A DNA stretch of 64,000 nucleotides from an uncultured Muribaculaceae bacterium (GCA_964458035.1 CAYWFZ010000003.1:8297-72296); one strand, 5' to 3'; positions 119 through 32,958 are shown, counted from the first letter of the stretch. Translations and numbers: made by a program. Notes: generated from the letters alone by a model not told the origin.

Positions 119-661
119 CTATTCTTTGTCATATTTTAATACCATTACTAAATGATATACTTGATAAATAAATAATACTAATATAGGTAATATTACAAAT
201 ATCAAGAAACCGACAGTAGAAGTCAAGAAACCAACTACCTTACCCATTTTAGACACTGTTTTACTATGTAGGCCAAGTATTCGTTCACTTGGAATAGATA
301 CCTTCTCATTGCCTTCAAAATTATAAAGAGCAGATCTATTGTCACCAGATTTAGATTTTACTACACCAACTCTAACGATATATATATCATTCAAAGTATC
401 ATAGTAATATACTTCATCTCCCTCTTTTATATCATTAAATAAAGTATCTTTTACTATTACTAAATCACCTGACTTAAAATGAGTCAATTCAGCAGTGTTT
501 TCATCAGTCATAATTATAAGTGTATTTCCGGCAATTTCTGTGTATCCATATTTGTTTTTAAAAAACAAAACACTTACCATACAAACTGCAAACACGATAA
601 TAACACACTCTAAAAGACCTAATAGAAAGTTTAATACACTTTTCATATTATCACCATACAT
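119..661 (-). CDS. SipW-like (archaeal/ER-type S26B) signal peptidase paralog; catalytic Ser and His positions appear substituted, so possibly a pseudo-peptidase
   Basis: 180 aa with N- and C-terminal TM helices and motif spacing resembling the SipW-type peptidase at 8749-9894 (GDLVIVK and KSGDNR versus NDIIVVK and TRGDVN). The SGSM serine motif reads AGNT and HRV reads VRV. Confidence 0.45.
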   Translation of the reverse strand: MYGDNMKSVLNFLLGLLECVIIVFAVCMVSVLFFKNKYGYTEIAGNTLIIMTDENTAELTHFKSGDLVIVKDTLFNDIKEGDEVYYYDTLNDIYIVRVGVVKSKSGDNRSALYNFEGNEKVSIPSERILGLHSKTVSKMGKVVGFLTSTVGFLIFVILPILVLFIYQVYHLVMVLKYDKE

Positions 662-774
662 ACATTATAACATTTTATACAAGAAAATGACAACAAAAAA
701 TAAATATAAAAGGATATTTTTTATTTAACTAAGAACCTATAATGGTAAACTTTACAAAATATATATTAATTTTT

Positions 775-814
775 AAAGAAAAAAAGAATATCTAATAAAA
801 CATTAGATATTCTT
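775..814 (-). terminator. Rho-independent terminator of the giant surface-protein gene
   Basis: Perfect 11-13 bp inverted repeat AAGAATATCTA...TAGATATTCTT at 784-814, overlapping the stop codon and followed on the minus strand by a TTTTTCTTT run. Confidence 0.6.
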
Positions 815-3800
815 TATACATCTTTCCTAATAATAATGTACTTATAAACCTCATCGATTAGTTGATTATTATCATATAATTTAAATACAATTCTATAAGT
901 TCCACTTCTTAAATTATTCTTTAGTATATAATTTAAGTGAATATTTTCTGTTGGATTAGGCGAAATAATGTATTCAAAAGTTGAGCTAGGTCTATAAGGA
1001 GAGACAGGATAATTGAATGTATTAGTAAACAAATCTCTTGCATTATATTCAACATAATCTGTACTGTTAGGTCCAGTAGTGCTTCTCTTATAAATAGTAA
1101 ATCTTATATTTGGATTTTCTAGAACTGAAGCATATGTTATATCAAACTCTTCTTCATTTGTTCCTAAACTATTTAGCCCACTCTTACCATCAACTAATTG
1201 AATTCCATCATCGTTATTAACAATTATCATATTGTTACTTCCTACTACTACAATATCATATTCAGTTACTGAAGGCTCCTTATCACCACTATTATGAAGA
1301 CCATCATTTGATGCAAAAAGAGAAATTCGCATCTTATATGTTCCAACCGGAAGAGTATCTCCCGTTGTAAATACTATATTCTTACTTAGATTTGAAACTT
1401 TGTCTGCAAGCTTTATTCTAAACACTCCATTACTATCGACATAATAAGTCTGCCCATCCATCGAAATGGACGCACTAGATAACTGTGATGATGAAGTTTG
1501 TGTTCCATTAACATCAAAGAATTCAATATTCAACCCTAAACTGCTACTCTCATAATTGGTATCAACTATTGATTGTCTAAGTTCAGTTTGATCATAGCTA
1601 ATTCTTGTAGAGGTTGATATATCCTTAGGGGTATCATAATAGAAATAATTGTTATCAAATTTATAATTACCAACTAATACTTCATTACTTGAATCGTATA
1701 AACTATATTTCATTAAGGACCTTCTTTGTCCCCAAACATTAAAGATAGTTTCTTCTCTATCAATATGTTCTCTTAATTCAAATAATATTGTATTATTCAA
1801 ATAATTTCCAGTAATAGTAGTGTCTTGGAAGTCAAATATAAATATAAATTCTTCATTAATAAAATTAATGTTTTCATGATAATAAATTTCATTATTAGTT
1901 TTATCATCATACGTGTTATTTTTATCAATAGAGTCCATCCGTATAAACTTTGACAACCGGTAAGCCACTTCATTTTCTCGATTCAGTTCTGCAACTGCAC
2001 TATTATAATCAGCTTCATCAACTATATAATAGTAATAATTTGGATTCTCATCATTATAGCCGTAATCAATCATTGTTATCTTTGTTCCAACTGGAAGAGC
2101 ATAACTAGATACTAATGCATGATAATTAGTATGATCCTTGCCATAGAATTCTTCCATATTATTAGAATGGGCCAACAAGGCAAAATAAGCCGTAAACTGA
2201 CTTCTATTCGTAATATTAACATTAGTTGCAGCAGGTAAATCATATTTTTTAGAATATGTAATACTTGCGTCATATGCATCACCGTCAAGTATTTCGACAG
2301 AATTAATTGTTACTGTAATCGTAACTAACTTGGATTCATACTCAACTTCATCTTTCGGCACTAATGCCTGAAGAGAAATAACAACTGAACCAAATTTTAA
2401 ATCCGGAGAAATATTCTTAGCGTGATACAAATAAAACATCATATTAGGAGCAAGAGATTGATTATCAGTTCTGTATTGATCAGTTCCTGAATAACTACTT
2501 TTATCTTCTTTCATAAACTTTGTTGTTCCTTGGTTAGTCCACTCAATAGATTCTGACTTCATTGTTAATCCCAAAACTGTATCGGCCTCTTCTTGTGTAG
2601 ATGATAGTTTTGATACAAAGTTTGAATCTTTTAATTTTACTCCTTCAGTTAAACCATCTCCATTAAAACCAATAACATTGAATATTACATTTCCATCAGG
2701 GAAGTCTGGCATATTAAGAACAGCTGTACCTAATGAAGAATATCTAGCTGCAATTAGTTCAACTTCATACTTAATTGAAGGGGTTCCAATTTCCCACATA
2801 TAGAAGTTTGAATTTGGAGGTATTGGATCAATATAAGCAGTTGTAAGTACAGTAAAATCATCATCTATATAATTAGTATAAAATCCATCTACAGTTATAT
2901 CATGATTTATCGCATGTAATCCTCTGACATAAGAACCATCAGTAATGATATCTCCTGCAGTAGCTGGACTACCATAAGACATACTAGAATCATACATACC
3001 ATATACATAAGATCCATTTCCATATGTATTATACATACCAAAGAAAGTCATACCATAGACATTACCAGAAATTGCTACATCTTCATCTATTGCAACATTA
3101 AGATTAGATCCAGCTAGCATGTAAAGCCTATTATTAACATTATAAGTTACCTGTTTAGTATCATCATTAATATCTACTTTAGCTTTTACTTCTTCGCCAT
3201 TAATATCAACTAAACTGCTAAATTCTTGAAGCATATTAGCATTATTTCTAAGAAGTAAATCAGTATCATTTTTTATCTTTAATCTACCTATTCTATTAAA
3301 AGAATATTGTTTATTAGAAATATGGTTTGTACTATCTGTTATACCAATAAGTTCAATTGATGAATTATCTATAACTACTTCATCAGCCCTTTGAATAGAT
3401 ACCGATGTATTAGGATGCTGTCTTGTTCCTAATTTACCAATATAAATATTTGAAGGTCCACTTGAAGATGATGCATTACCAGAACCAAATATACTACCCG
3501 ATATCTTAAAGACATGATTATTTTCGTAACCAGCACCATTGATGTTTATATCAATTCCTTGGGTAACACTTATATGGTCAAAGTCAAATATCTCACTTCC
3601 ACCTTCATTAGCTTCACCACCACCGAAAACAGTTCCGCCAATTTGAATATCGCCAAGAGTAAGATTATTATTCGTTATAGCAGAGGCTCCAATATTTACT
3701 TTTGCGTAACCATATATTTCGGAAGTATTACATCCACCATAAACATTCTTTCCAATTGTTGCACCAGCTATATTAACTATTGAATTACTATTATCTGTTG

Positions 3801-6800
3801 AAGTTAGTCCAACTGCACCATGATTTCCTCCGCCAAATACAGAAGCTGCAACTTTTGTTGTCCCATCAACATTAACTAATGTACTACCATAAACAGTCGC
3901 TTGGTTTCCTCCACCATAAATGGAAGTAAGTATTTGAGCGTCTGTTATGTTAACAATTGTATTACCTGTAACAACGGCTTGATTTCCTCCACCAAAAATA
4001 TTAGTAATTTCACCCTTATCAATATCAATATCAGTATTATTAGTAGTTCCACCTAAATTATTTCCACCATATATATTTCCAATTATTAATTCAGAAGTTG
4101 CACTACTTGGAGTTTTAATAAACGTATTTCCAACTTCTCCAGATTGATTTGAACCACCATAGACATTATTAATATTTCCAGAATGCAAATCAATATGAGT
4201 AGTATTAACACCTATCTTATTTCCTCCACCATAGATACTATCTAAAATAGTCGCACCATTTTGAGTTATATAACTTTCATTAGTAATACCATCTTCGTTA
4301 TTTCCACCAAAGACATTTGATGAAGTTCCAGATATTAATTCAATATTGGCTCTATCAATATTACCTCCAGCATTACTTCCACCAAATATATTACCAACTG
4401 TAGATCCTTTTAAATAGACATTTGTGCTTGTTGTAACATCGGCATCTGCACCACCACCATAAACATTAGGTATATTGGCAGCATTAAGTGTTACATAGGT
4501 TTCTCCAGTAGGTGCTTTATTTCCTCCACCATAGACAGAATCAGTAATCTTCCCACCATTAATAGTGATATTACTTTTTAAGGTATTTCCACTTAAATTA
4601 TTGCCACCAAAGATATTAACTACAGATCCAGACGTTGTAATAATATTCGATTCATTTACTGTTCCTGAATAATTTGAACCACCATAGATTGAATCCATAA
4701 CAGTACTACCTTGTAAATAAATATGGTTATCAGTTACAGAAGCATTTCTACCTCCACCAAAGACATTTTTAATAGTGCCACCACTTAAGTAAACATTAAT
4801 TTCTCCGAGTGGAGTTCCAGCAGCATTGTTACCACCATAAACTTCTCCGATATTACCACCATTAATTTTAACTAGTATATCGCCACAGACTCTTGGAGTA
4901 TAAGTTGAACTTCCTTCACCGCCTCCAAATACTGCCGTTCTTACAATACCTTTATCAAAATTAATTGTTACACCAGAACTTGATTTATTAGTTGAGGTAT
5001 TATTATCACTATTAACTGTTCCAAATGCACTTCCACCATAGATTGAACCATTTACAGTAATTTGTCCAGAGGAAGAACTATTACCAGCTTGTATACTTAT
5101 AGCATCTCTTACATAAGTACCAGGATAAGATGAGTTAGAATAACCACCATATCCTCCTCCATAAACATCGTGAAGAATAGAACCACTATATAAGTTAATA
5201 GTTACTCCTCCATAGATAATTCCGGATTCATTTGGTCCTCCATACAAAGAACCTTCGACGGTTCCACCATCTACTGTAATGTTAACCTGTGATGTATAAT
5301 CGCTGCTTCCTGAACCATTATTATTTCCGCCACCATAGACATTACCAACGACAGTACCTCCAAGAAGTTTGATATTGGATTTTGATGCAGAACTTAATCC
5401 TACTGCACCATAATTTCCTCCACCATAAACATTTCTTAAAATACGTGCATTTCCATCAATAATAATATTAGAGTTATTTGCTGTTCCAATTTCTGATGAT
5501 GTGGTTTTTCCGTTACCTATACCAAAGATACTTCCAGCTTCGAATCCAAAAAGCATTTCATCATTAGCAACATATTCTTCTTTTCCAATAACTGCTGATC
5601 CTCCAATATAGACAAATGTATCGCCATCTAACTCTCCGGTTTGATCGGATGTTCCACCCCAACCTCCAGAGTTAGTTTCACTAGTAATTCCATTACTGCC
5701 ACCAAATACACTATTATTTATTGTTCCTCCAGTAACTTGAATAATTCGATTACCATAGGTTCTTGTCCTTCCTGCGCCACCTATGATAGCATCTACTTCT
5801 CCGCCTTTTACATAGATATAACTATCATTATAATCTTTGTTTCTACTTTGAGATAAAGGTCCACCAATTAAATTATAAACCCATCCTCCTTCAATAATAG
5901 CTTCTCTCGCAGCATAATTAGCTCCACCGCCTCTACCACCAACATATATTCCATATGTATAGTTACTTGTATTACTATTACTATAAGAAGTAGGTCTTCT
6001 TGACCCAAATTTTCCACTTTTTACTATTGTATGCATCGGAATTGAAGCGGCGCCATTTTTATACACATTATTTCCCCAAGAACCTGATGCACAGAAATAA
6101 ACATCTAAGTTATCATTATTCTTCCTAACTCTATCATAGTCATTTCCATATATTGCTGTTCCATCTATATAGACAGTTCCTGATCCTGATCCACCAGTAA
6201 CTAAAAGAGTATTATAAAATCCACTCTCAACCATAAAACGGTAATTGGTAATATTAGTAGATGATCCAGTAGAAGCATTGTCTCCGCCCATTGCTGAGTC
6301 AAAATTAGCACGATTAGTATTATTTCTTTTAATTCCTCTTCCAATCTTAACATTAAACCATCGTCCATATAAATTTCCAGATCTATCGTCTCCTCCCCAT
6401 CCACCGGATGAAGTAGATGCACTAGCAGGAGGATCACTTTCTCCTAAAGTTGCATTATTACCTGAATCAATTGTTAAATTTTCAATGACAAGGTCATTAT
6501 AAGCAGCAACAAAAGAAGAAGACAAATTCCATGTGGTATTACTATTAACTCCATTATTTACCCCTGTTATTGTTACTGGCTTAGTTTGGGATGTTCCAAG
6601 AGTAGACGAAGTATTCTCACTTAATACAATTATATTAGTATCTCTAGTAACTAAATAATAATACGTTTTATCTTCATTATAAATATTTAAATTTCCATTC
6701 TCATCATAAGCTTGTAACAACTTATAATATGTACAACTTGATTGATTACAAGTACCACTACTTTGATAATTTCCTAATCCATCATAATAGCCAACTAATG

Positions 6801-8688
6801 AGGCGTTTCTATTTAAAACAACTTTCTCATAATAAGGACTCATTAAAGAATCTTCATTAAAAAGAACTACTTCTTTTTCAATTATTTCATCATCTACATG
6901 GAATGGAGGTCCAGATATAGATGTCTGTTGCATGATTCCATCAACCAAAGTATAATACGTTGTATATGGATTATAATTATTTCCAGATTGTCTTGAATAA
7001 ACAGTACATCCATTCCAGAAATTATTACAATTTCCAGAGGTTGCACGTCCATTAGAATCATAATATCCATTCTGAGAATTGCCATATCGAAGCGAAACTT
7101 GTGTGTAATATTTAGACATATCAATTGTATCAGAATAAATTGGTTTAGTTTCTCTAACTATATTTACTGCTTTTACTTCCTGCATTGATACACTATTCAA
7201 AGCATTTATTGCTGTTGAAAAAGAGGTAGTAGAATGTTTCACATAAACAGTTGCAATAACCCACGATGCATTAAACTCAATCGTTATATCATTTGGTTTT
7301 CCATCACTTGCATAAGTAACTGGGACTTTTACACTTCTTACATAAATATCACTATTATGTGAAACTTTTGCATTAGGATACAATGTACTCCAACCATTAA
7401 AAGCTAAATTATTAGGTCTATCAGTAAAAGGATTATCAATAAGTTCAAATTCAATATAATCTTGAGTAGAATCTTTATGCAAAGGTATTGTTTTATAATA
7501 AATATATGTGTCCTGTCTTTCATCTAATGAAACATAGCCGTGATGCTCCTCTGGATTAGCAGGATCAATTCCTGAATAAGTAATTTGAACATTAACTAAA
7601 TTAGAGTCATTATAAATATTTTTATTATCCATATTAGGTAAACGACCATCACTACTTGTTGTATAATTTAGTCCCATATAATAATTATAATCAGATTCTA
7701 AATCATTAACATATACGATATTATCTACAATACCAGAAGCATGTGTAGTAATACTCCTTGGGATTACATATAAAGAAGCAATATCAGGTTCTCTTTGATT
7801 GATAAATAAAGTGTCCCCTTCATTAACCCAATTAAAATTCTTCTTATCTAAGTCTTGATTAGCTTTGTTTAAAAAATCATCAACTTTATCAAGGTTAATT
7901 ACACCATTCAATTCTTTATCTGTACTAGTATAATCATAAAGATTATTTTTAACCAAAACATTATTATATTTAACATTAGAATTTGTATATGCAATAGAAT
8001 AAACATTATCATAGTTTGAAGAGATATCAATGTAAGTGTTTTCTATACTAGAATCAGCTATGTTATTTACAAGGCCACCAACATTTAATTGATCTATTAC
8101 AGTATCAGTTAAAGTTATGCTAGCACCATTAACCGATACATTTTTTATAACACTTTGATTTTTAACATCTATCGCTAAAACACCTGTGTTAAGGCCTTCC
8201 ATATTTTCAATTGATTCCTTAACATTCTTTAAATTAACGTTTTTAAATTCAGCCTTATCAAGTCCATAAAATAAAGCATAGTTATTATCTGATGAAACTA
8301 TATTTAGGTTACTAATAGAATATCCATTACCATCAAAAACACCGTTAAAATATCTATCTTTCCCTCCAATAGAAGTAAAAGGTAGATTATCCATATTAAT
8401 GTCGTTTGTAAGTATATAAGAAGCACTTAAATAATTAGTATTAGTTTCTTCATTTATAACTTTCGCAAAGTAAGCTAGTTCTTCACCACTAGAAATTAAA
8501 AAAGGGTTTTCTTTCGTTCCGTTTCCACCATAAAAAGAAGTTGCAACATCGCCACTCCATACATTTTCTATTGTTGCAAAACTACTAAAAGTATTTGGGG
8601 AAAATTTTGATATTAATCCAATTGCAATTATCAACAGAAAAAAAACACTAAGTACTAATCTTTTTCTAATATTTTTAGAACACTTCAT
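814..8688 (-). CDS. Giant secreted repetitive beta-helix surface protein (about 2,620 aa) with at least 24 copies of a ~21-residue [IV][YF]GG[GSN]N repeat (Pmp/right-handed beta-helix-like)
   Basis: Longest ORF runs 814-8706. The likely start is the ATG at 8688 (MKCSKN...), which is preceded by AGGTGG. N-terminal basic/hydrophobic signal sequence followed by NTFSSFAT, which resembles SipW-cognate TasA/camelysin signals. The dense periodic GGxN repeat block maps to about nt 3790-5320. Confidence 0.7.
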   Translation of the reverse strand: MKCSKNIRKRLVLSVFFLLIIAIGLISKFSPNTFSSFATIENVWSGDVATSFYGGNGTKENPFLISSGEELAYFAKVINEETNTNYLSASYILTNDINMDNLPFTSIGGKDRYFNGVFDGNGYSISNLNIVSSDNNYALFYGLDKAEFKNVNLKNVKESIENMEGLNTGVLAIDVKNQSVIKNVSVNGASITLTDTVIDQLNVGGLVNNIADSSIENTYIDISSNYDNVYSIAYTNSNVKYNNVLVKNNLYDYTSTDKELNGVINLDKVDDFLNKANQDLDKKNFNWVNEGDTLFINQREPDIASLYVIPRSITTHASGIVDNIVYVNDLESDYNYYMGLNYTTSSDGRLPNMDNKNIYNDSNLVNVQITYSGIDPANPEEHHGYVSLDERQDTYIYYKTIPLHKDSTQDYIEFELIDNPFTDRPNNLAFNGWSTLYPNAKVSHNSDIYVRSVKVPVTYASDGKPNDITIEFNASWVIATVYVKHSTTSFSTAINALNSVSMQEVKAVNIVRETKPIYSDTIDMSKYYTQVSLRYGNSQNGYYDSNGRATSGNCNNFWNGCTVYSRQSGNNYNPYTTYYTLVDGIMQQTSISGPPFHVDDEIIEKEVVLFNEDSLMSPYYEKVVLNRNASLVGYYDGLGNYQSSGTCNQSSCTYYKLLQAYDENGNLNIYNEDKTYYYLVTRDTNIIVLSENTSSTLGTSQTKPVTITGVNNGVNSNTTWNLSSSFVAAYNDLVIENLTIDSGNNATLGESDPPASASTSSGGWGGDDRSGNLYGRWFNVKIGRGIKRNNTNRANFDSAMGGDNASTGSSTNITNYRFMVESGFYNTLLVTGGSGSGTVYIDGTAIYGNDYDRVRKNNDNLDVYFCASGSWGNNVYKNGAASIPMHTIVKSGKFGSRRPTSYSNSNTSNYTYGIYVGGRGGGANYAAREAIIEGGWVYNLIGGPLSQSRNKDYNDSYIYVKGGEVDAIIGGAGRTRTYGNRIIQVTGGTINNSVFGGSNGITSETNSGGWGGTSDQTGELDGDTFVYIGGSAVIGKEEYVANDEMLFGFEAGSIFGIGNGKTTSSEIGTANNSNIIIDGNARILRNVYGGGNYGAVGLSSASKSNIKLLGGTVVGNVYGGGNNNGSGSSDYTSQVNITVDGGTVEGSLYGGPNESGIIYGGVTINLYSGSILHDVYGGGYGGYSNSSYPGTYVRDAISIQAGNSSSSGQITVNGSIYGGSAFGTVNSDNNTSTNKSSSGVTINFDKGIVRTAVFGGGEGSSTYTPRVCGDILVKINGGNIGEVYGGNNAAGTPLGEINVYLSGGTIKNVFGGGRNASVTDNHIYLQGSTVMDSIYGGSNYSGTVNESNIITTSGSVVNIFGGNNLSGNTLKSNITINGGKITDSVYGGGNKAPTGETYVTLNAANIPNVYGGGADADVTTSTNVYLKGSTVGNIFGGSNAGGNIDRANIELISGTSSNVFGGNNEDGITNESYITQNGATILDSIYGGGNKIGVNTTHIDLHSGNINNVYGGSNQSGEVGNTFIKTPSSATSELIIGNIYGGNNLGGTTNNTDIDIDKGEITNIFGGGNQAVVTGNTIVNITDAQILTSIYGGGNQATVYGSTLVNVDGTTKVAASVFGGGNHGAVGLTSTDNSNSIVNIAGATIGKNVYGGCNTSEIYGYAKVNIGASAITNNNLTLGDIQIGGTVFGGGEANEGGSEIFDFDHISVTQGIDININGAGYENNHVFKISGSIFGSGNASSSSGPSNIYIGKLGTRQHPNTSVSIQRADEVVIDNSSIELIGITDSTNHISNKQYSFNRIGRLKIKNDTDLLLRNNANMLQEFSSLVDINGEEVKAKVDINDDTKQVTYNVNNRLYMLAGSNLNVAIDEDVAISGNVYGMTFFGMYNTYGNGSYVYGMYDSSMSYGSPATAGDIITDGSYVRGLHAINHDITVDGFYTNYIDDDFTVLTTAYIDPIPPNSNFYMWEIGTPSIKYEVELIAARYSSLGTAVLNMPDFPDGNVIFNVIGFNGDGLTEGVKLKDSNFVSKLSSTQEEADTVLGLTMKSESIEWTNQGTTKFMKEDKSSYSGTDQYRTDNQSLAPNMMFYLYHAKNISPDLKFGSVVISLQALVPKDEVEYESKLVTITVTINSVEILDGDAYDASITYSKKYDLPAATNVNITNRSQFTAYFALLAHSNNMEEFYGKDHTNYHALVSSYALPVGTKITMIDYGYNDENPNYYYYIVDEADYNSAVAELNRENEVAYRLSKFIRMDSIDKNNTYDDKTNNEIYYHENINFINEEFIFIFDFQDTTITGNYLNNTILFELREHIDREETIFNVWGQRRSLMKYSLYDSSNEVLVGNYKFDNNYFYYDTPKDISTSTRISYDQTELRQSIVDTNYESSSLGLNIEFFDVNGTQTSSSQLSSASISMDGQTYYVDSNGVFRIKLADKVSNLSKNIVFTTGDTLPVGTYKMRISLFASNDGLHNSGDKEPSVTEYDIVVVGSNNMIIVNNDDGIQLVDGKSGLNSLGTNEEEFDITYASVLENPNIRFTIYKRSTTGPNSTDYVEYNARDLFTNTFNYPVSPYRPSSTFEYIISPNPTENIHLNYILKNNLRSGTYRIVFKLYDNNQLIDEVYKYIIIRKDV

Positions 8689-8748
8689 ACTTCCACCTAT
8701 TATCATTCTAACACACTTTACTAATTAAAAAAAGAAGCAGCAAGCCTC

Positions 8749-9894
8749 TTATTTACTTTTTTTCAACATTGGTAATTCTAAATCATCAAGATTTTTAATA
8801 TCAGCATTTACCTTAATTCGTTTTTTTATTGCTTCTAGATCAAAATTAGATTCACAATTTAAATTTTTAACAGTACTTTCAATAGAAGTTATAATACCTC
8901 GAACATGATGATTATCATTAATAAATGCCTTGTCTTTATCTATTCTAACGCGATATTTTAAAACCTTTAATACAGCATCAAAGAACTCCACTTCATCATA
9001 CAATAGTGATCCTTCAAGCAATCTAAAGAACACATGAATTGGCATTTCATACAACTTATCTTGAATAGTCTTAGTAAATGAAATAGATTCAAAATCATAA
9101 TTATATAATTCATCAAAAGGAATATTATATAGAAGTTCTAAAACAGCGTCAGGGTCATAAAAATCCGTAACTACAAGAGTATATAAATATTGTAATTTTA
9201 AAGATCCATCTGTAGTAAGCTTTAATAATTTCTTTTTCGACTTTAACATACCTAAAACCAAATCGACAAATAGTTTCTCTTCGACATTCATTGGTTCAGT
9301 TTCTACTTTTTTTAATTTGTCCTCTAAAGCATCTTTTATTGATATAACAGATATAGCCTGAGTATACTCAAGAGGAGTTTCACATTTCTTAACTTTATGT
9401 TCTTTTTCTTTAGCAATATATTTTTTAAATATTTTATCAAAATTAACAAGTAGATAGACAATAACAATAAAAAGAACAATAGCTATTACCTTAAAAACTA
9501 GTGTCATTGGAACAATTAAAGAAACTCGTCCAATTATCGCATCTTTATTTACTGGTTCATCATCAATATTATTAACATCTCCCCTAGTAATAACTCTATC
9601 ATCATCTATACGAATAACTCGATGGGTAATAAAAGCATCATCACTCTTAAAAGTAATAATATCATCTACATTGTACTCATCATTTATTTTTACAACTATT
9701 ATATCATTTACTTCAATAGTACCAGACATACTACCACTAGCAACAATAAAATATGTATAACCAAATATATTTGCATAATCCTTATGCATAAATTTAGTAA
9801 TAACAACAGTATATAATGATAGAAAAACTAGTAAAGATAATATTAAATATATAAAATATTTAATCACCCTTTTTATTACTTTCATATTATCCAC
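8749..9894 (-). CDS. sipW: SipW-type (S26B) signal peptidase I with a ~230-aa C-terminal cytoplasmic extension
   Basis: Motifs SGSMSGTI, NDIIVVK, ITHRVI and TRGDVNN match the archaeal-type SipW catalytic core. An N-terminal TM and a second TM (VFKVIAIVLFIVIVYLLVNF) are followed by about 230 extra charged residues. Confidence 0.75.
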   Translation of the reverse strand: MDNMKVIKRVIKYFIYLILSLLVFLSLYTVVITKFMHKDYANIFGYTYFIVASGSMSGTIEVNDIIVVKINDEYNVDDIITFKSDDAFITHRVIRIDDDRVITRGDVNNIDDEPVNKDAIIGRVSLIVPMTLVFKVIAIVLFIVIVYLLVNFDKIFKKYIAKEKEHKVKKCETPLEYTQAISVISIKDALEDKLKKVETEPMNVEEKLFVDLVLGMLKSKKKLLKLTTDGSLKLQYLYTLVVTDFYDPDAVLELLYNIPFDELYNYDFESISFTKTIQDKLYEMPIHVFFRLLEGSLLYDEVEFFDAVLKVLKYRVRIDKDKAFINDNHHVRGIITSIESTVKNLNCESNFDLEAIKKRIKVNADIKNLDDLELPMLKKSK

Positions 9895-9951
9895 CTATTT
9901 TACTATTCATAGCAATTATAACATAAAACAACAAAAAAAGACTAGTATTTA

Positions 9952-11559
9952 CTAATCTTTATCTATTTTTTTAAAATCAATTATATATTTTATTTTCTCA
10001 ATTGATATATCGCTATTATTAATATTATTAACAAGATTAATAAAATCAATACTTTCTTCTAATCCAATAAGATTGTCTACTAGATCATCTTTACTTACAT
10101 TAATATTAAGTAATTTATACTTTTCAAATATAATATTATTTAAATCTTCATCACTTTGAAATTTGATTTTTGTAATAAAAGTATTATTAGGATTATTAAC
10201 AAAGTTGATTAATTTAAAATATTCCTTAGTATAATCTATATCTTTATCATCTAAGTCGATTTTTGGACACATCTTCTTAAAATAATCATAAAAAGAAGCA
10301 CAGACATATAATGCATCTCTTATAGTAGAAGTATCATCTAATCTTTTTAAAATAATATCATTAATTTTAGCTTCATCAAGTTCTCGATACAAGCCATCAA
10401 GTTTCTTTATTTGATCATTTAATTGAACTATAATTAAGTCTTTATTAACTTTCTTAGCAAATATAAATTTAGACTCACTTGCATATTGCTTAGCTAATTT
10501 AGCACGAACCTTTTCCTCTTGCCTAATTTCTTTTAGTTTAGCATCATACTGACCCTTATATGAATCTTTATTAGCATATCTTGATAAAACATCCTTAACT
10601 ATTCCTTTGTACTTATTATAATGATCTAATTCAACTACAACATCCTTTAATTCGCTAATTTCATCATAAAAATCTGACTTCTCTTTAGGAGATAAATCAT
10701 CAAATTCACGATCTATTAAGAATCTATTAAAGTTCTTGCGCACTTGAGGTGTATCCTCCAAATAATCATATATTGATAAAGTACCATCCAAGAATTTACT
10801 GCTAAGCAAGAAAATATCATTAATACGTTGCTTCTTTAGATCAGTAAGCATTGACTGATAGTACGATTTATAATTATCCTTATCTGTATTATTTTTCTTA
10901 AGTAACTCTTCATTACTTCTAATATAATAACTATCAAGTTCTTTTTTAAATTGCGAATATAAATTACGAATACATAATTTTAAATGAATTATAAAATTAG
11001 GACATTCCCAGTATATTTTATCAAATATATTTTTCATTGAATCCATAAAAGTATCCTTGTCTAAATTCGCAAAATATACTTCCATATACATATGCGTAAA
11101 CATAGAATAATTAAAATGTTCAGCTGTCAATTTTATTTCAGCACGATCAAACAAGTCAATAATCTTATCTATAAACTCGTTTACTCTTGTAAAATCTGAA
11201 ACATCAATATCATCGATATCATTAACTATATTATCAAAATTAAGTTTATTATATATATCATTAAATTCATTGTTATAGTCAAATATGATTCTATAATTTA
11301 ATATTCTATCCTTCAAATCAATATAATTAGCCGTTGAATCAGCTGGTATTAAAGCATTAACTCTAGATTCCATTTCATTATAAATTCTATCTCTTAAATC
11401 TTTGTATTTCTCTAGTTTTCCCTCAACAAAAGCATTTCTACTATTAACAGCATTAATATGAAATGTTTTCATCATTTTCTTTGTTCCAGTTGTAGACTCT
11501 AACTGAAACTCTTCAATATATTTCTTATCTTCCTCAAACTGAGTTAGGTATTGATTCAT
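9952..11559 (-). CDS. Hypothetical 535-aa K/D/E/N-rich, probably cytoplasmic protein
   Basis: Long ORF with no TM or signal sequence. Its ATG overlaps the stop of the upstream 46-aa ORF (ATGA). Confidence 0.6.
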   Translation of the reverse strand: MNQYLTQFEEDKKYIEEFQLESTTGTKKMMKTFHINAVNSRNAFVEGKLEKYKDLRDRIYNEMESRVNALIPADSTANYIDLKDRILNYRIIFDYNNEFNDIYNKLNFDNIVNDIDDIDVSDFTRVNEFIDKIIDLFDRAEIKLTAEHFNYSMFTHMYMEVYFANLDKDTFMDSMKNIFDKIYWECPNFIIHLKLCIRNLYSQFKKELDSYYIRSNEELLKKNNTDKDNYKSYYQSMLTDLKKQRINDIFLLSSKFLDGTLSIYDYLEDTPQVRKNFNRFLIDREFDDLSPKEKSDFYDEISELKDVVVELDHYNKYKGIVKDVLSRYANKDSYKGQYDAKLKEIRQEEKVRAKLAKQYASESKFIFAKKVNKDLIIVQLNDQIKKLDGLYRELDEAKINDIILKRLDDTSTIRDALYVCASFYDYFKKMCPKIDLDDKDIDYTKEYFKLINFVNNPNNTFITKIKFQSDEDLNNIIFEKYKLLNINVSKDDLVDNLIGLEESIDFINLVNNINNSDISIEKIKYIIDFKKIDKD

Positions 11560-11696
11560 TTTTCTTCCTCTTCTATAGTCAGAATACTATTATTAAGATA
11601 CTTAATATGTTCGTCTACTTTTCCATAGAATTCCATCAATTCATCATCTGTTAATTTACTTAAATTAAGAAGTGGGGTTTCAATTTTCTCTTCCAT
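11556..11696 (-). CDS. Small acidic protein (46 aa), translationally coupled to the 535-aa gene
   Basis: ATG at 11696 is preceded by AAGAGGT at 6-nt spacing. Its TGA overlaps the ATG of the downstream gene. Hand-translated (MEEKIETPLLNLSKLTDDELMEFYGKVDEHIKYLNNSILTIEEEEK); it is below the ORF-track length cutoff. Confidence 0.45.
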   Translation of the reverse strand: MEEKIETPLLNLSKLTDDELMEFYGKVDEHIKYLNNSILTIEEEEK

Positions 11697-11778
11697 ATTA
11701 ACCTCTTTCTAGAATTACATGCTAAATATATTATATCATAATTATTTTCATTTATTTCTATAATTTGACATATATTGT

Positions 11779-11801
11779 AAAAAAAAGGCTTTTAAAGCCT
11801 T
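11779..11801 (-). terminator. Rho-independent terminator after the 353-aa TasA-like gene
   Basis: AAGGCT/AGCCTT stem (palindrome ggcttttaaagcc) followed on the minus strand by a run of about 6-8 T. Confidence 0.55.
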
Positions 11802-11819
11802 TATACTATATCATCTATT

Positions 11820-12881
11820 CTATGGTGTATCAGTTGCACCAGACTTACTATTTGAACTAAATTGTAAGTCAAAGTTTATTTGTCCACCAGCTGCGAAGTT
11901 TTCACAGTCAACATCTTGACCTTCAACCCACATATAGATTCTTATCTTAGTAATTCCTTTTTTCAAATCTATAAATTCTTGATAAGCAGCTGCAGGAATA
12001 CCAGATTCTGGAGTAGCAATATAGTTAGTTGGAGCAGCAGTAGGAGCATCCTTTGTTACTTCTTGGAAATAAGCATTATCAGTACTATTTAAAGCAACTG
12101 CAGTAGTAATTGGAGCTTTAAGTCCATAATATCCAAGTCTTGCAGCGCCATTTAAACTAGTAGTCTTTCCATAAAGAGCTGCATTTGTTATACCAGTAGG
12201 TGTATGAACATCATAATTTGGTTCCCAGAAAATTGGTGTAGCACCAGCATTTGCTAAATTTTGAATAGTACCTGTTGCACTACCAGCAGCAACGTTACCT
12301 TCATCAATGAATGCAAGTCTTGCAGCTCTTTGAATACCAGTATCTGCATCTCCGTCTCCACCTTTAACTGAAGCCTTATCTGTTAAATAGATTTTAGTAT
12401 CTTCTTGAACTTGGAAGAATAAGTCAAATGCTATAAAATGTCCATCTTGTGATTTTGTTTCAGTTGATTTAGAAGCAGTTAATTCATATGCACCAGATGT
12501 TTCATTAACTACAACTTCACCTAAGTACATATCCATTTCTCCACTTGTTGATAGCTTTCCAACAGTTGATACAGGAGCTAATCTACCAGTAGAACTAGGC
12601 AATTGGTTCTTGTTTCCTGGGTATACTGTATTAGTACCAGTAATTGTATCTACTATATCTTGATTAGTTACTATAGCTTTCCAATTGACTCCATCAACTG
12701 ATATTTGTAGACCATTTGCAGCAGCAACATTAACATTAATTGTACTTACTGTAACAGTTTTATTTGCAGTAAACCATGCATAAGATGTTGTAGCTAGTAA
12801 ACCACCAGTTAAAAGAAGCATCAAAACAGCTAATAACAATTTTCTTTGCTTTTTTCTACGTTTAACTTTATTTTGTTTCAT
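11820..12881 (-). CDS. TasA/camelysin-like secreted protein with a SipW-cognate-type signal peptide
   Basis: N-terminal basic region and hydrophobic core, then TTSYAWFTANK, matching the (G)GT[FW]A[YA]F[SN]D motif of TasA/CalY. The C-terminal IYMWVEGQDVDCENFAAGGQINFDLQF is shared with two neighbouring paralogs. Confidence 0.65.
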   Translation of the reverse strand: MKQNKVKRRKKQRKLLLAVLMLLLTGGLLATTSYAWFTANKTVTVSTINVNVAAANGLQISVDGVNWKAIVTNQDIVDTITGTNTVYPGNKNQLPSSTGRLAPVSTVGKLSTSGEMDMYLGEVVVNETSGAYELTASKSTETKSQDGHFIAFDLFFQVQEDTKIYLTDKASVKGGDGDADTGIQRAARLAFIDEGNVAAGSATGTIQNLANAGATPIFWEPNYDVHTPTGITNAALYGKTTSLNGAARLGYYGLKAPITTAVALNSTDNAYFQEVTKDAPTAAPTNYIATPESGIPAAAYQEFIDLKKGITKIRIYMWVEGQDVDCENFAAGGQINFDLQFSSNSKSGATDTP

Positions 12882-12897
12882 TATATTTCTCTCCTTT

Positions 12898-13602
12898 TTA
12901 TTTTCTTACTAATCTTTCTTCAGTTATATCCATATGCATCTTAATGCCTCCACCTATCAAGTCATTATTACACTCTGGATCGTCACCTTCAATCCAAATT
13001 ACTACAGTAAAATGGTCTTTATCTCCTGGTAAAAATTCTTTACGTTCCTCAAGTACAGCTATATCAGTAGAATAAAATTTAACCGTATCTTTTTCTGCCT
13101 CACCTGTTCTACTACTTGGTTTAGCATAAATAGTCTTTTCGCCATTATGATATATCATAACTCTTATTGATTCATCAAGATTTCGAATTGTATCATCAAT
13201 ATCAATTTCATACCAATAATTGATTGGATTTTCACCTGCATGAACTAAATAAAAGCTATAAGCAACATAATTAGTACCATTATGGGCACCATCTGCCTCA
13301 GTATCAATGTCTTCATTTATCCATTTAACTGAGATATTATCCATGTATTCAGCAGCACTTGCAGACAAACTCCTACTCTTGTTTTCTAAAGATCCATCTT
13401 CCGTTAAAAATATACTACTTTTTAGCATATCTTTATCAACCGATATCGAAAAATTACTAGTATTGTACACTACATACAATACCGAATACGATACAGAAAA
13501 CAACAATAGTAAAAGCAGTAATATAACTTTCGAAATTCTTGAAAATAACTTTTTTCTATGAATTTTATCCGCAGTTGTAGAAACACTATAATCTCTTTTC
13601 AT
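12898..13602 (-). CDS. TasA/camelysin-like paralog (234 aa) with N-terminal signal anchor
   Basis: C-terminus VIWIEGDDPECNNDLIGGGIKMHMDI aligns with the C-terminus of the 353-aa protein. N-terminal hydrophobic segment. Confidence 0.55.
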   Translation of the reverse strand: MKRDYSVSTTADKIHRKKLFSRISKVILLLLLLLFSVSYSVLYVVYNTSNFSISVDKDMLKSSIFLTEDGSLENKSRSLSASAAEYMDNISVKWINEDIDTEADGAHNGTNYVAYSFYLVHAGENPINYWYEIDIDDTIRNLDESIRVMIYHNGEKTIYAKPSSRTGEAEKDTVKFYSTDIAVLEERKEFLPGDKDHFTVVIWIEGDDPECNNDLIGGGIKMHMDITEERLVRK

Positions 13603-13806
13603 GTAATCACCATCTTTTTTATTGTTTTACTAGGGGGACAATAGTATCTACACTACCACTATCATAATTATATTTTAGTCCCTAATTAATATCAACAATA
13701 TTTGTCAATAAATGTCGAACTATACACACTATGTTTACACAAAAACAATACATCAAGAAGAATAGTACGTTTGACTAATAATTGAACCCATGATAATATA
13801 ATAATA

Positions 13807-14403
13807 GTGATACTTATGAATACTAAAAATATACTAAGAATAGGACTTATTATTGTTGCTATTTTTCTTGCTAGTTTTTTATTGCAAGACACATTTGCAA
13901 AGTATAGAAAAAGAGTAAATAATAACGTTGATATAAACCTTGCCAATTGGAATATCTTACTTAACGGAGAAAGTATAGCTGGTAAAGATACAATATCGAG
14001 TAAAATAATTCCGGTATTTGAAAAAAACGACTATATTGCAGAAAACGTTTTAGCACCTGGAGTAAAAGGATACTACGATATCGAAATAAACGCCAGTGAA
14101 GTTGATACATCTTTTTCTTATGTTTTTACAACCAAAGTAAGTGATGAAGAAAAATATCCTGATATTATCGCTTTTGGATATACAATAGATCCAGATAACA
14201 ATTCTGAAATAATTGAGTATACTGGTGGAAGTATAACTGGTTCTATAGTTCACAATACACCATCCACTAAAATAAGAATTTATATTGAGTGGGACGATTC
14301 AGAAACAAATAAAATGACAAATGCAGAAGATACTGCCCTTGCCATTAATAATAATGAACTAACGATGAATGCCGAATTCAAATTTGAACAAATTAAGGAA
14401 TAA
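13807..14403 (+). CDS. Small secreted protein, possible third TasA-like paralog (198 aa)
   Basis: Signal peptide followed by QDTFAKY (TasA-like cleavage motif). The C-terminal IYIEWDDSETNK...NAEFKFEQI resembles the conserved C-terminal motif of the two upstream paralogs. Divergently transcribed. Confidence 0.5.
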   Translation: MILMNTKNILRIGLIIVAIFLASFLLQDTFAKYRKRVNNNVDINLANWNILLNGESIAGKDTISSKIIPVFEKNDYIAENVLAPGVKGYYDIEINASEVDTSFSYVFTTKVSDEEKYPDIIAFGYTIDPDNNSEIIEYTGGSITGSIVHNTPSTKIRIYIEWDDSETNKMTNAEDTALAINNNELTMNAEFKFEQIKE

Positions 14404-14493: not shown

Positions 14494-15408
14494 ATGAGTA
14501 AATTTGAATTTCTAAAAGCTATTCCTATAAATCAGTTAGTTTCTTTATATAATGTAACAACTGATGAAGTACTTAAAGAAAATATTAACAGCGTCTTAAA
14601 AAGAAGTAAGCCATATATGGCTGAGTGCTATAGCAGTGATCGTCACTCATACATTGAAGAATCTATTACACCAGCATATTTAAAATTAATTGATAATCTA
14701 TTGCTCAAAGACTTAGGTTTTTATAATGAGCTAGTATGTCTTAGTCGTGGAAATAATCGAGGAGCAAATGCCAGCTATAACTTTTTAGATAAGCCCATGT
14801 TAATGTACTATTATCCTGGAGTAAAAGAGAGATTATTCAAATATGACATTAGATTTATGAAACAATTCCATAATATTTTCGTCTTTGGTTCAAGATATTA
14901 CGGTGGAGAAAAAGATGAGAGTCTAGTTCAAGAAATAAAAAGCATCCCCGAAGTTATAGAGGCTAAAGAAAAAACAGAATACTTTAAATATTTAGAAGAA
15001 TTTTTCAATAGTGAAGAAAACAGATATTATTATGAAGGATCATATAACAGTTTCATGTACATAAAAGATTATCTATATAAAATTCTAAGCAATCACAATA
15101 TGGAAATGTCTGATTTATTAAAAGAAACACAAGAAAAATCCCAAATTGTTTTAGAGTACTTACAAGAAATCTGTAAATATTTATACGATCTTAAAGATAA
15201 TATTGGAGAATGTAGAATCTCCGCATGTAATAACAGATCTATAACTCAGATACTAAAAGGAAGAGAAGACTCTGGACTTAACAAACAACAACTAGCAGAA
15301 CTTCTAGCTTTTGGAATAACAAAAGACGAATTAAAAAAACAAGATTTTAAAGCTTTAGATAGATTAATTTATATACCTAGAAATAAACCGCGTAAAACTT
15401 TATTTTAA
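14494..15408 (+). CDS. Hypothetical protein (304 aa)
   Basis: Long ORF behind a near-consensus promoter. No motif recognised. Confidence 0.5.
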   Translation: MSKFEFLKAIPINQLVSLYNVTTDEVLKENINSVLKRSKPYMAECYSSDRHSYIEESITPAYLKLIDNLLLKDLGFYNELVCLSRGNNRGANASYNFLDKPMLMYYYPGVKERLFKYDIRFMKQFHNIFVFGSRYYGGEKDESLVQEIKSIPEVIEAKEKTEYFKYLEEFFNSEENRYYYEGSYNSFMYIKDYLYKILSNHNMEMSDLLKETQEKSQIVLEYLQEICKYLYDLKDNIGECRISACNNRSITQILKGREDSGLNKQQLAELLAFGITKDELKKQDFKALDRLIYIPRNKPRKTLF

Positions 15409-15721: not shown

Positions 15722-16753
15722 TTAACACTTTTCTATAAATCTTGCGGGTAGATAGTCATCTGCAAATGCAATTGATATATGATTAAGTGAAGCAAAATTT
15801 AGTGCTTTTTCATCATCATAATTTGAAAAATATTCTTCTTTACTAACATTTTCATAATAAACTTTATCCAATACTTGATTATCAGAAAAACTATCTTTAT
15901 ATCCATAAAATATATCTTGAATAAGCATTTGCACTTCTTCATCATTGATATTAATTCTATAAATATCTTTGTATTCTAATAATTCCTTTATTTTTCTTCC
16001 AAGTTCTGGATACAAAGGATATCTAAAAAAATACATATAACTAGCACCAAATGGTCCTCTAAACATCTCAAGAGCCTCAATTATCTCTTCTCTGCTTAAA
16101 CTATTTTCTTCTCTTCCTTTAAATTTTTCTAAATTCCAAGAATCAACAATTCTATACTTATACTTATCGGAATACTTATCAAACAAATCATACATTCTAT
16201 GATTATACATATACTTTAAGCTTAAAAGACCCTTACTTATATCAGCATTCTTATCAACAACATGGTAAAAATAAAGTGGTTCATTTAACTTAATAAGTTC
16301 TTGTGATGAACAATAATTCAAAAATTCTGGTGCTTTCATCCTTTTATTTGGTTTTTGATAAAAGTAAACAAATGCATATACTTCCCCAACTGATATATCC
16401 GAAAAAGAAAGAATTAACTTATTTTTTACATCCATAAGTAATTCTTTTAATGAATTATATTCGTAAACTCCCTTATAGGATTCCCACGAATGCTCGAACC
16501 AAATGAACTTGCCATTATTTTGATAAACAATAAAAGTATGTGTTTGATAATGTTCAGACTCATCAGATAAGCTAACAAAGTAAGATTGTGTATCTACTCC
16601 CAAATCAGAAAACAATTTTCTCTCTAATTCAACTTGCTCCCAACAATTTCCTTCCTTAGATTCTATAACTTCCTTCGCATCTTGAATAAAAGTATCATCA
16701 TCAATCCATCTATAATTAATTTTTTCTAATTCCCGCATTACTGATTCATTCAT
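15722..16753 (-). CDS. Hypothetical protein (343 aa) with an N-terminal Cys/His (GNCWEQ ... HTF) transglutaminase/papain-like-looking motif
   Basis: ORF only. The motif assignment is tentative. Confidence 0.45.
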   Translation of the reverse strand: MNESVMRELEKINYRWIDDDTFIQDAKEVIESKEGNCWEQVELERKLFSDLGVDTQSYFVSLSDESEHYQTHTFIVYQNNGKFIWFEHSWESYKGVYEYNSLKELLMDVKNKLILSFSDISVGEVYAFVYFYQKPNKRMKAPEFLNYCSSQELIKLNEPLYFYHVVDKNADISKGLLSLKYMYNHRMYDLFDKYSDKYKYRIVDSWNLEKFKGREENSLSREEIIEALEMFRGPFGASYMYFFRYPLYPELGRKIKELLEYKDIYRININDEEVQMLIQDIFYGYKDSFSDNQVLDKVYYENVSKEEYFSNYDDEKALNFASLNHISIAFADDYLPARFIEKC

Positions 16754-17613: not shown

Positions 17614-17631
17614 TATAAAAGGATGATGTCT

Positions 17632-18474
17632 ATGAATATTAATTATTTAAAAATAGAAGAAGAATTAAATAGTTACGCCATTGAAGCAATATATGACATA
17701 ATGGAAAAATGCGGAAAATTCATGACACAAGAAGAATTTGAAGCATACGAAAAAGGAATTTTAGAAAATAAAGTCATAATTGTAAACAGACCTAGTGTAG
17801 ATGACGATAAATTCTTCAAGGGTAATGTCCCTGTTGCTCATGGTCCAAGAACAAAAAAGGATGGCTATGTTCATGTCTATCCATATAGATATAAAAATCA
17901 AAACACCGACCAAATTATAGATAACTATATAAACGGATCAATAATATTACATGAACTATATCATTATATAATAAGACTAGATATAAAAAATTCTAATGAA
18001 AAAACACGAATAAGATTTGGACACTATATCACAGAAGGTATGGTTGAGTTATTCACAGAACTTCACAATAAACAAAAAGCAACAAGATGGTCTGCAAGAA
18101 GGAATGTTGATGCAGCTGAAAAAATATACAATATACTTTTGGACAAAAGTGATATAAAACTAATTTTTCAGTGTAACATTGAAGAAATTTTTTCAAAATA
18201 CCCAGAACTTGAAATAATATATGAAGACTATTTAAAAGAATGTAAATTCGTTGAAGGATTAACAAATATACTTGAATCCTTAAGAGAACACGCATCAATA
18301 GATACAAAAAGAATTATAGCAAGATTCAATAGGTATTCTCTATTAGAAGGTATTGAAAACATTAAACTTGAATCAGAAAATTTTCTTGATGAAGTTGATG
18401 CTAATTATTTTAATAAACAAATTGATGAATTATATACAAGTATTTATGAAGACAAAGAAAAAAGACTTAGTTAA
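17632..18474 (+). CDS. Putative zinc metallopeptidase (HExxH: ILHELYHYI)
   Basis: The ORF track starts at 17623. The ATG at 17632 has a better-spaced AAAGGA RBS. Single HELYH motif; otherwise unrecognised. Confidence 0.5.
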   Translation: MNINYLKIEEELNSYAIEAIYDIMEKCGKFMTQEEFEAYEKGILENKVIIVNRPSVDDDKFFKGNVPVAHGPRTKKDGYVHVYPYRYKNQNTDQIIDNYINGSIILHELYHYIIRLDIKNSNEKTRIRFGHYITEGMVELFTELHNKQKATRWSARRNVDAAEKIYNILLDKSDIKLIFQCNIEEIFSKYPELEIIYEDYLKECKFVEGLTNILESLREHASIDTKRIIARFNRYSLLEGIENIKLESENFLDEVDANYFNKQIDELYTSIYEDKEKRLS

Positions 18475-18482
18475 GTCTTTTT

Positions 18483-19037
18483 TTATTTTCTTTCCCAGCC
18501 AAATCGTAAAACGTCATAAGTTAGTTTATGTCTACCAATCTTTTTAATTGCATAATCACTATTTGGAACTAATAAATCTAAATCGTTTCCAAGAACTCCT
18601 CTATCAAGAACAATTCCTGTTACTTTTTTATCTGAAACATAAGAAGCATCAAAAGTAACTATAGATCCACAAGGTAGATTCTTAGAAGAAGCTAAAATAA
18701 CAACATCTCCATATTCTGAATCATTATAACTTGTAGTTCCATTTGCAACATAAGCACCATTACATGCTAAATAACCAGTACATAATGGACAATCTGCAGA
18801 GTACCCCGTTAAATCTCCCGTGAAAGTATCTAAAGGATAATATTTATCTGCCATATTAATCTCATTCATTTTTAAAACCATAGCTGTTAAATCCAAAGTT
18901 TTATTTAAATTTTCATTAATTACTCGATCATTTTGATTTACTACATTTACTTTTTGAAGTATTAATACTGCAAACAATAATAATAGAATTTTTGATGTTT
19001 TATTAAATTTTCGTAGAATCTTTTTCATTACTATCAC
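18483..19037 (-). CDS. 3D-domain (YabE/YuiC-like) secreted cell-wall protein
   Basis: Signal peptide, then GYSADCPLCTGYLACNG...GDVVILAS....PCGSIVTF, the 3D (MltA-like) domain signature. Same position as yabE in the B. subtilis tatD-yabE-ksgA synteny. Confidence 0.7.
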   Translation of the reverse strand: MIVMKKILRKFNKTSKILLLLFAVLILQKVNVVNQNDRVINENLNKTLDLTAMVLKMNEINMADKYYPLDTFTGDLTGYSADCPLCTGYLACNGAYVANGTTSYNDSEYGDVVILASSKNLPCGSIVTFDASYVSDKKVTGIVLDRGVLGNDLDLLVPNSDYAIKKIGRHKLTYDVLRFGWERK

Positions 19038-32753: not shown

Positions 32754-32958
32754 AAATTAATTATAACATATTTTTTATATAAATAAAGTATTTTTTACCT
32801 TGCAAATATTTATTTTTTTTAATTCCATTTTCCTTTTTCACTAATTTTTGTTTTTTGTTCTATTTTTATATGCAAATATCGATAATTTACTAAAAAAGTC
32901 ATCACTTTTTTAATATTTGTAAAAAAATTATATCAAATATTTAAATTTATTAATTTGA

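Follow-up and report, generated by a model that had tools for sequence, protein, structure and literature searches.

Gene content and limits of the locus

A stretch of 64,000 nucleotides (nt) deposited as DNA of an uncultured Muribaculaceae bacterium (GCA_964458035.1 CAYWFZ010000003.1:8297-72296), hereafter named the window, carries at positions 119-14403 a compact block of genes. In a preliminary description, this block was proposed to encode a SipW-dependent surface fibre or adhesin system. We followed up this proposal by computational analysis of the locus and of its relatives. Seven co-oriented open reading frames (ORFs) on the minus strand and one divergent ORF on the plus strand were called in the block, all exactly where the preliminary description had listed them (Table 1). 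ORF coordinates are window positions, and related loci were numbered L001 onwards.

Table 1. Genes and regulatory features of the locus (aa, amino acids; TM, transmembrane segment)
Feature	Position	Strand	Description
p198, 198 aa	13807-14403	+	divergent; pilin-like, predicted to be secreted or anchored; N-terminal signal ends DTFAKY; candidate minor subunit
sigma-70-like promoter match	13667-13695	-	TTGATA-17-TATAAT, upstream of p234; candidate operon promoter, consensus match only
p234, 234 aa	12898-13602	-	TM anchor at aa 17-48 and extracellular beta domain; candidate base, anchor or nucleator
p353, 353 aa	11820-12881	-	signal peptide, predicted cleavage around TSYA/WFTANK, then beta-sandwich; candidate major fibre subunit
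terminator-like hairpin	11784-11802	-	AAAGGCTTT-AAA-AGCCTTT, then T8; 18 nt past the p353 stop
p46, 46 aa	11556-11696	-	acidic, small and cytoplasmic; translation coupled to that of p535
p535, 535 aa	9952-11559	-	cytoplasmic orphan
SipW-fusion, 381 aa	8749-9894	-	signal peptidase I (aa 1-157) and cytoplasmic C-domain (aa 158-381)
giant, 2630 aa	814-8706	-	N-terminal signal/TM, GNGT..NP..I cap motif, Gly-rich repeats, long C-terminal region
g180, 180 aa	119-661	-	dead SipW paralog, both TM segments retained
terminator-like hairpin at the g180 stop codon	92-119	-	

Transcription of the minus-strand genes follows the order p234, p353, p46, p535, SipW-fusion, giant, g180. The p46 and p535 genes share an ATGA overlap, and elsewhere the gaps between genes measure 16-152 nt. 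Promoter-like sites were in slight excess over shuffled sequence, and terminator-like hairpins were found directly 3' of p353, of SipW-fusion and of g180. With the first of these hairpins, the layout resembles that of operons over-expressing a major subunit: the hairpin may act as an attenuator, enriching the mRNA of the major subunit and splitting the p353 transcript from the downstream genes.

The two limits of the block fared differently. On the right, position 14403 is correct, because neither p304 nor the genes further out share the conservation of the block. The left limit is an artefact of the window edge: on the metagenomic contig L084, where g180 is identical, three further genes named d193, d208 and d318 follow (L084:6572-8760). 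The g180-d193-d208-d318 block is kept in at least 8 other genomes, and the whole operon amounts to some 17 kb or more (about 17-20 kb). The initial description, which put g180 at the distal end, does not hold in this respect.

Conservation and host lineage

We next took 83 related loci, called their ORFs and compared these with the proteins of the window. Nearly all of these loci, which belong to different species-level genomes, have the order p234-p353-p46-p535-SipW-fusion-giant. This co-occurrence check bears out the proposal that the genes form one conserved block. p353 was present in 83/83 loci, p234 in 79/83, p535 in 74/83, SipW-fusion in 67/83, p46 in 60/83 and giant in 55/83, most of the absences being explained by the ends of the loci. 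Wherever p234 was found, it lay directly upstream of p353, and p198 was divergent upstream in about 20 loci. Identity to distant relatives was highest for p234 (55-76%), followed by p353 (46-58%), the giant protein (38-52% over about 2300 aa) and SipW-fusion (33-53%), p535 being the fastest-evolving member of the operon (27-53%). Two distant relatives of p198 were also found, one in another system of the same type (L085) and the other as a lone gene in a spore-former (L086).

The p353 family comprises at least 1438 clusters at 90% identity. None contains a Pfam domain, and their only name is “hypothetical protein”, from metagenome-assembled genomes (MAGs) of Tenericutes/Mycoplasmatota. A scan of species-representative genomes returned up to 471 related stretches, the best 80 of which all belong to MAGs of uncultured gut or rumen bacteria, under labels such as Bacilli, Mollicutes, Mycoplasma sp. 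CAG:877, Mycoplasmatota and Ca. Faecenecus. This set of labels we take to be the GTDB order RF39. With Mycoplasma sp. CAG:877, Mollicutes and Mycoplasmatota among the labels of related contigs, the carriers, which are uncultured, low-GC, small-genome gut Bacilli, probably belong to the RF39 lineage. Such reduced genomes suggest dependence on partners or on the host. RF39 genomes mostly keep peptidoglycan genes (PMC7301438). Eight contigs (L004, L022, L025, L030, L035, L047, L063 and L078) with an operon of the Bacilli type bear the title “uncultured Muribaculaceae” or “Acidaminococcus fermentans”, probably through mislabelling or mis-binning of MAG contigs.

A signal peptidase fusion and its dead paralog

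The 381-aa protein is a signal peptidase of the endoplasmic reticulum (ER)/archaeal type (SipW/Sec11-like), apparently active. Its N-terminal 157 aa matched the SipW model NF046067 (E=5.9e-13; 48.8 bits against an equivalog cutoff of 190), as well as TIGR02227 (29, cutoff 47) and Pfam S24 (22.8, cutoff 23.3), in each case below the curated cutoff. Its SGSM(SG), THRV and GDVNN motifs align to those of human SEC11C with Ser, His and Asp intact, and SGSM, THR and GD.NN are conserved across all homologues of the fusion. A hydropathy scan placed TM segments at residues 6-37 and 119-157; beyond the second, a Lys-rich junction leads to a C-domain of about 225 aa. Given this two-TM topology, the C-domain must be cytoplasmic, and the initial view of a SipW-type peptidase fused to a large cytoplasmic domain stands. 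The C-domain is conserved among homologues and matched no known family; hhalign revealed no relationship with either p535 or p46.

g180 matched SipW weakly (NF046067, E=3.9e-4) and has TM segments at residues 5-38 and 139-176 in the hydropathy scan. Throughout its family, Ser, His and Asp are replaced at the aligned positions, which makes g180 a conserved pseudo-peptidase, in keeping with the inactive paralog initially noticed. A possible origin is suggested by L003, which holds a divergent version of the system (L003:11675-20816). It has no fusion, and a canonical, active peptidase of the archaeal type that passes TIGR02228 (93 bits, cutoff 51.85) follows the giant gene, in the slot of g180. 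This arrangement suggests an active ancestor for g180, the fusion having later assumed its role. Genes for a sortase and an SH3_3 protein are also near the system in L003.

A catalytically dead signal-peptidase fold, SipA (LepA), is known from the FCT pilus locus of S. pyogenes, where it is essential for pilus polymerisation (PMC4049620). g180 is similar to SipA in being a conserved dead peptidase fold inside a candidate fibre locus, the functional likeness being an analogy only. SipA derives from the bacterial Ser-Lys, P-type signal peptidases and works with sortase-dependent LPXTG pilins, whereas g180 goes back to the ER/archaeal Ser-His-Asp type and a sortase motif is absent from every subunit.

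A third class of short SipW-like proteins was observed in L007, L013, L062, L066, L075, L076, L079 and L082. They keep xSM and THR, have TKGIAN in place of GDxNN, so that the usual Asp is missing, and adjoin p198-like genes. In L007, a McrB-like AAA protein (GISGTGKT) and a DUF2357-like partner (L007:3282-7026) lie between d318 and the short SipW, next to an extra 260-aa subunit with an NTYAWF signal (L007:7578-8360).

The secreted proteins are remote paralogs

On the evidence of profile comparisons, p353, p234, p198, d193, d208 and d318 form a network of remote paralogs. The strongest link joins p198 to d193 (hhalign 99.8%); p198 and d208 (94%), d193 and d208 (94%), and d208 and d318 (73%) complete this part of the network. 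p353 is tied to p198 through its N-terminal ~100 columns (72%), and to p234 through 38 columns (75%; BLASTP E=3e-4) that cover a C-terminal motif common to both, VVIWIEGDDPEC..GGGIKMHMDI. The preliminary description had seen in the window three TasA-like paralogs united by such a C-terminal motif: their paralogy holds, as a remote one, and the motif joins p234 and p353, p198 being connected to p353 by the other end.

A second shared element is a post-signal motif, (S/T)-(Y/F/L)-(A/S/G)-x-(Y/F), common to six or seven proteins of the locus. In d193, d208 and d318, an N-terminal hydrophobic segment is followed by a motif of the TFTAFES, SYSSYY or TLGRYVY type. Among all stretches of 15 residues in p353, conservation peaks in two, the C-terminal KIRIYMWVEGQDVDC and TTSYAWFTANKTVTV, which spans the cleavage site and the N-terminal strand. 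This pattern is as expected if processing bares a strand that docks onto another subunit.

AlphaFold models of p353 and p198 (mean predicted local distance difference test, pLDDT, of 87 and 92.6) have an N-terminal helix, a likely signal or anchor, followed by an all-beta, pilin-like domain. With the p353 model, Foldseek found nothing in the PDB at E<1e-3. The fold search with p198 returned the pilin domain of PapG (6.4), CanX (5.8), the TasA fibre (5.6, with the longest alignment, 133 residues), AbpA (5.0) and DUF1102 (5.0), together with CS20, FimG, CsuA/B and CupE. No Pfam or NCBIfam family was matched by any of the six proteins, and ten p198-family clusters bore only the name “hypothetical protein”.

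We also observed an acidic motif with a single conserved Cys in p353 (WVEGQDVDCE, aa 318-327) and p234 (WIEGDDPEC, aa ~203-212). It is invariant, and a visual comparison matches it to the E-D-N-G-x-D-Q-N loop of CalY/TasA. It may be a metal (calcium) site or provide a covalent cross-link at a subunit interface.

Two well-known types of appendage were considered and rejected. For a sortase-dependent pilus, the subunits lack an LPXTG-like motif and a C-terminal TM (none in the ten proteins searched), and Pfam and NCBIfam scans revealed no sortase within window positions 1-18 kb; near the system, a sortase occurs only in L003. For a type IV pilin, the regular expression for class III signals was negative, and the conserved motif stands after the hydrophobic segment, not before it.

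The giant protein and the cytoplasmic pair

A single hydrophobic segment stands at the N-terminus of the giant protein (aa 12-40), and the region from aa 1000 to aa 1700 holds about 22 Gly-rich [YF]GG[GSN]N repeats of about 25 aa each. These repeats are consistent with a beta-solenoid. A secreted beta-helix protein had been announced for this gene: the signal segment and the repeats are there, and the beta-helix is putative, the protein having no sequence match in Pfam, NCBIfam or the PDB. It carries neither LPXTG nor a C-terminal anchor or TM. A conserved (S/T)(F/Y/L)(S/G/A) site is located 5-8 residues before W(D/S)G...GNG(T/S)..NP(Y/F).I, and the signal region resembles that of p353 (hhalign 75%), a weak link because signal peptides can align by composition. 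Conservation extends along the whole length, C-terminus included, so that the protein is not polymorphic.

The two partners encoded between p353 and the fusion were initially described as coupled cytoplasmic proteins without recognisable motifs, which agrees with all our searches. Hydropathy indicated no TM segment in either. p46, with an amphipathic core and an acidic tail, shows a conserved ..EL..Y....HIKYLN.SI.. core in 58 homologs, and matched no family or PDB entry. p535 matched nothing in Pfam, NCBIfam, PHROG or PDB profiles, and homolog searches gave no motif and no detectable relative outside the operon. A second, alignment-based search brought no new or annotated relatives of p535, low-complexity words having probably saturated its candidates. 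The p46-p535 pair stays beside the giant gene in loci with rearranged orders (L076, L079). Its link to the fused domain is not an exclusive one, since the pair occurs in L003, which lacks the fusion.

A candidate surface fibre

These genes make up a single system. We favour, at somewhat better than even odds (roughly 0.55), the reading that the operon encodes a SipW-dependent system for a surface fibre or adhesin, whose subunits would belong to a new pilin-like family, at most distantly related to TasA. In its favour are synteny, the catalytic motifs present in the fusion and absent from g180, the shared post-signal motif, the remote paralogy of the subunits, the conservation pattern of p353 and the hairpin that follows its gene. 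According to this scheme, the Sec pathway would export p353, the major subunit, as well as p234, p198, d193, d208 and d318. The ER/archaeal-type peptidase of the operon would then cleave the subunits after their private (S/T)-(Y/F/L)-(A/S/G) site, freeing a highly conserved N-terminal beta-strand. By donor-strand complementation, the freed strand would fill in the beta-sandwich of an adjacent subunit, a principle known from TasA, archaeal threads, bundling pili and cannulae. The base or nucleator could be p234, the most conserved protein and one with a TM anchor; the small paralogs would provide minor subunits. The giant protein, which would likewise be exported by Sec, may be a further subunit or an attached component with an adhesin role. 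By analogy with S. pyogenes SipA, g180 might be an assembly factor that holds substrates. The cytoplasmic domain of the fusion, p535 and p46 would act on the inner side of the membrane, where they would link or control export and assembly.

Among known systems, the archaeal donor-strand filaments of the TasA superfamily are among the closest: Sulfolobus threads (7PNB), Pyrobaculum AbpA (7UEG), Pyrodictium CanX cannulae (9H8B) and DUF1102 tubes (9BAC). The likeness to chaperone-usher pili (Pap, Fim, Csu, CFA/I) is at the level of the fold only, the host here being monoderm, with neither usher nor periplasmic chaperone.

Several points weigh against the fibre reading. It is computational throughout, with models of monomers only, and the parts attributed to p535 and p46 are conjectural. 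Cleavage sites were assigned by eye, and p234 has no clear cleavage motif. The expected family signatures were not found. At E<=0.1-1, neither PF12389 nor the TasA/CalY models of NCBIfam were matched by p353, p234, p198, d193, d208 or d318. A wider set of 86 diverse p198-family members likewise matched no TasA/CalY model nor any other Pfam or NCBIfam family, and a search of PDB profiles with the p353 profile recovered neither TasA nor any other meaningful match. The six family profiles were also compared by hhalign with TasA (its sequence verified against PDB 8AUR) and with a shallow, Bacillus-only alignment of 9 sequences, made of TasA plus eight plasmid-borne TasA/CalY proteins. The best hits were d193 (E=0.0075, 5%) and p234 (E=0.014, 3%), and both alignments cover the last two strands only. 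Against the signal-peptide model TIGR04088, p353 scored 11.9-13.3 bits for a cutoff of 19 (41.6 for the TasA control), and p198, p234, giant, d193, d208 and d318 gave no match.

Judged by sequence, the secreted proteins are not of the TasA/camelysin (M73) family. On this point the preliminary description was not borne out: it had named profile searches as the test on which TasA/camelysin membership would turn, and at the sequence level both the hidden Markov model and the profile-profile comparisons were negative. It had also called for a signal-peptide check with models of the TIGR04088 type, which ended below the cutoff, and the SipW-cognate signal that it ascribed to the giant protein is retained only as a resemblance to the p353 signal. 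From the fold searches, the proteins may still be distant relatives within the TasA superfamily. The last two strands of CalY, IFEDNGTDQNVFQGDSIALKMEFQANQ, and of p353, WVEGQDVDCENFAAGGQINFDLQFSSN, also look alike by eye.

Alternative readings

The leading competitor to a fibre is a surface module that does not polymerise. SipW would mature p353, p234 and the small paralogs into a coat or wall layer, the giant protein would be an adhesin, and the cytoplasmic proteins would serve as its export chaperones, like Asp1-3 for serine-rich adhesins. In the accessory Sec system (SecA2/Y2-Asp1-3), non-enzymatic cytoplasmic accessory proteins encoded in the operon accompany a giant serine-rich surface adhesin. 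This system is purely a working analogy for p535 and p46, with no relationship in sequence, and no homologues of SecA2/SecY2 or Asp proteins are present here. We consider this module possible, on the unlikely side.

A more ambitious form of the fibre reading, which we hold as doubtful, is that of a new appendage machinery of monoderm bacteria. The fusion, g180 and p535/p46 would form a trans-membrane platform, linking factors inside the cell to a chaperone-free donor-strand polymerisation of a new pilin superfamily outside it; the platform would display the giant adhesin, and the whole would be the principal attachment organelle of RF39-like bacteria.

The locus could also be an ordinary, divergent orthologue of the Bacillus tapA-sipW-tasA operon of the biofilm matrix. 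Both this operon and sipW-tasA-calY of B. cereus place the gene of a dedicated ER/archaeal-type peptidase beside those of secreted substrates, and tapA-sipW-tasA likewise includes a major subunit and accessory or anchor subunits. An aromatic residue stands just after the predicted cleavage site in TasA (TWA/AF) as in SYA/WF and TFA/KY here, and the TasA fibre was among the best structural matches. Terra et al. 2012 (cited in PMC4551309) call B. subtilis SipW bifunctional in their title. Orthology is nevertheless improbable. No protein of the locus belongs to PF12389 (M73), NF046066, TIGR04087 or TIGR04088, nor by sequence to TasA or TapA, and subunit sizes and domain layouts differ. Five to seven components have no Bacillus counterpart (p535, p46, giant, g180, the C-domain of SipW-fusion, p234). 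The locus contains a 2630-aa protein, two cytoplasmic orphans, a 225-aa peptidase extension, a dead paralog and at least six paralogous secreted proteins. As an analogue, put forward by the preliminary description, tapA-sipW-tasA remains a reasonable guide to how the system may work, without sequence membership.

Another explanation would make the giant protein a TpsA/CdiA-like exoprotein or toxin carrier of a secreted effector or contact-dependent system, with p535/p46 as immunity proteins or chaperones. Its size, secretion and repeats would fit, as would the rapid evolution of the adjacent cytoplasmic orphans. We judge it very improbable: Pfam and NCBIfam scans found no toxin, TPS, RHS or LXG domain, the giant protein is conserved up to its C-terminus (about 40% identity over about 2300 aa) with no polymorphic tip, and the peptidase pair and the six paralogous small secreted proteins would be left unexplained. 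Lastly, a mobile island or the remnant of a prophage, with genes for tail-fibre-like proteins, might account for a giant repeat protein, many unannotated genes and the McrBC-like island within the system of one relative (L007), but we give it hardly any credit, as no PHROG was matched except the generic S24 fold, tblastn of p198 and p353 against plasmids gave no match, the genes are embedded among housekeeping genes (ksgA, metG, tatD, mfd, pth) in an order conserved across many species, and the GC content is no more aberrant than amino-acid composition explains.

Genomic neighbourhood

The window has a GC content of about 27%, and its GC skew turns at about 42 kb. With dnaA at 41108-42478 (-), these data place the locus 27-42 kb from oriC. 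The high gene dosage that the preliminary description drew from this proximity is a conjecture. A small signal recognition particle RNA was detected at 32667-32764 (-) (Rfam RF00169, 51 bits). On the right-hand side, orphan genes are followed by ksgA, tatD, metG, mfd and pth, a housekeeping context; adjacency to ksgA was found in the two closest relatives only. No Pfam match was obtained for five ORFs in the neighbourhood, which encode 184-343 aa and lie at 14494-15408 (+), 15722-16753 (-), 17623-18474 (+), 18483-19037 (-) and 22117-23139 (-). Where checked, they are not conserved together with the operon.

Upstream of the operon in L001 (L001:1187-9099), three tandem pairs of genes precede that of a membrane-anchored serpin. 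Each pair encodes a protein of 160-190 aa with a Cys-rich C-terminus and a protein of 364-533 aa ending with a TM and a near-identical tail, EDGAVEFQYVSGLGNVVELKDAILNDTL. These pairs may belong to a polymorphic family of surface proteins or effectors.

Significance

The logic of such a system is not new: Bacillus and archaea have SipW-linked fibres that need no chaperone, and dead signal peptidases occur in streptococcal pilus loci. The novelty lies in a widely conserved operon, some 17 kb long or more and present in a major uncultured gut lineage, with eight unannotated protein families, as well as in its cytoplasmic components, its peptidase fusion and its giant, putatively solenoid protein. 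Eight operon proteins belong to no Pfam or NCBIfam family, and scans with Pfam, NCBIfam and PHROG gave the peptidase domain only. We found no description of the operon in the literature on RF39/Mollicutes adhesins, SipW and TasA.

The operon is carried by an uncultured lineage with reduced genomes that is widespread in the guts of humans and animals, and the locus supplies some six unannotated protein families suitable for building family models. If the operon does encode an adhesive fibre, this fibre would be an obvious candidate for attachment to hosts, mucus or partner cells, and p353 would offer a conserved and abundant surface antigen for enrichment, imaging and immunological study. The chaperone-free principle of SipW/TasA-type fibres would then extend to a new superfamily, with unexpected cytoplasmic and pseudo-enzyme parts.

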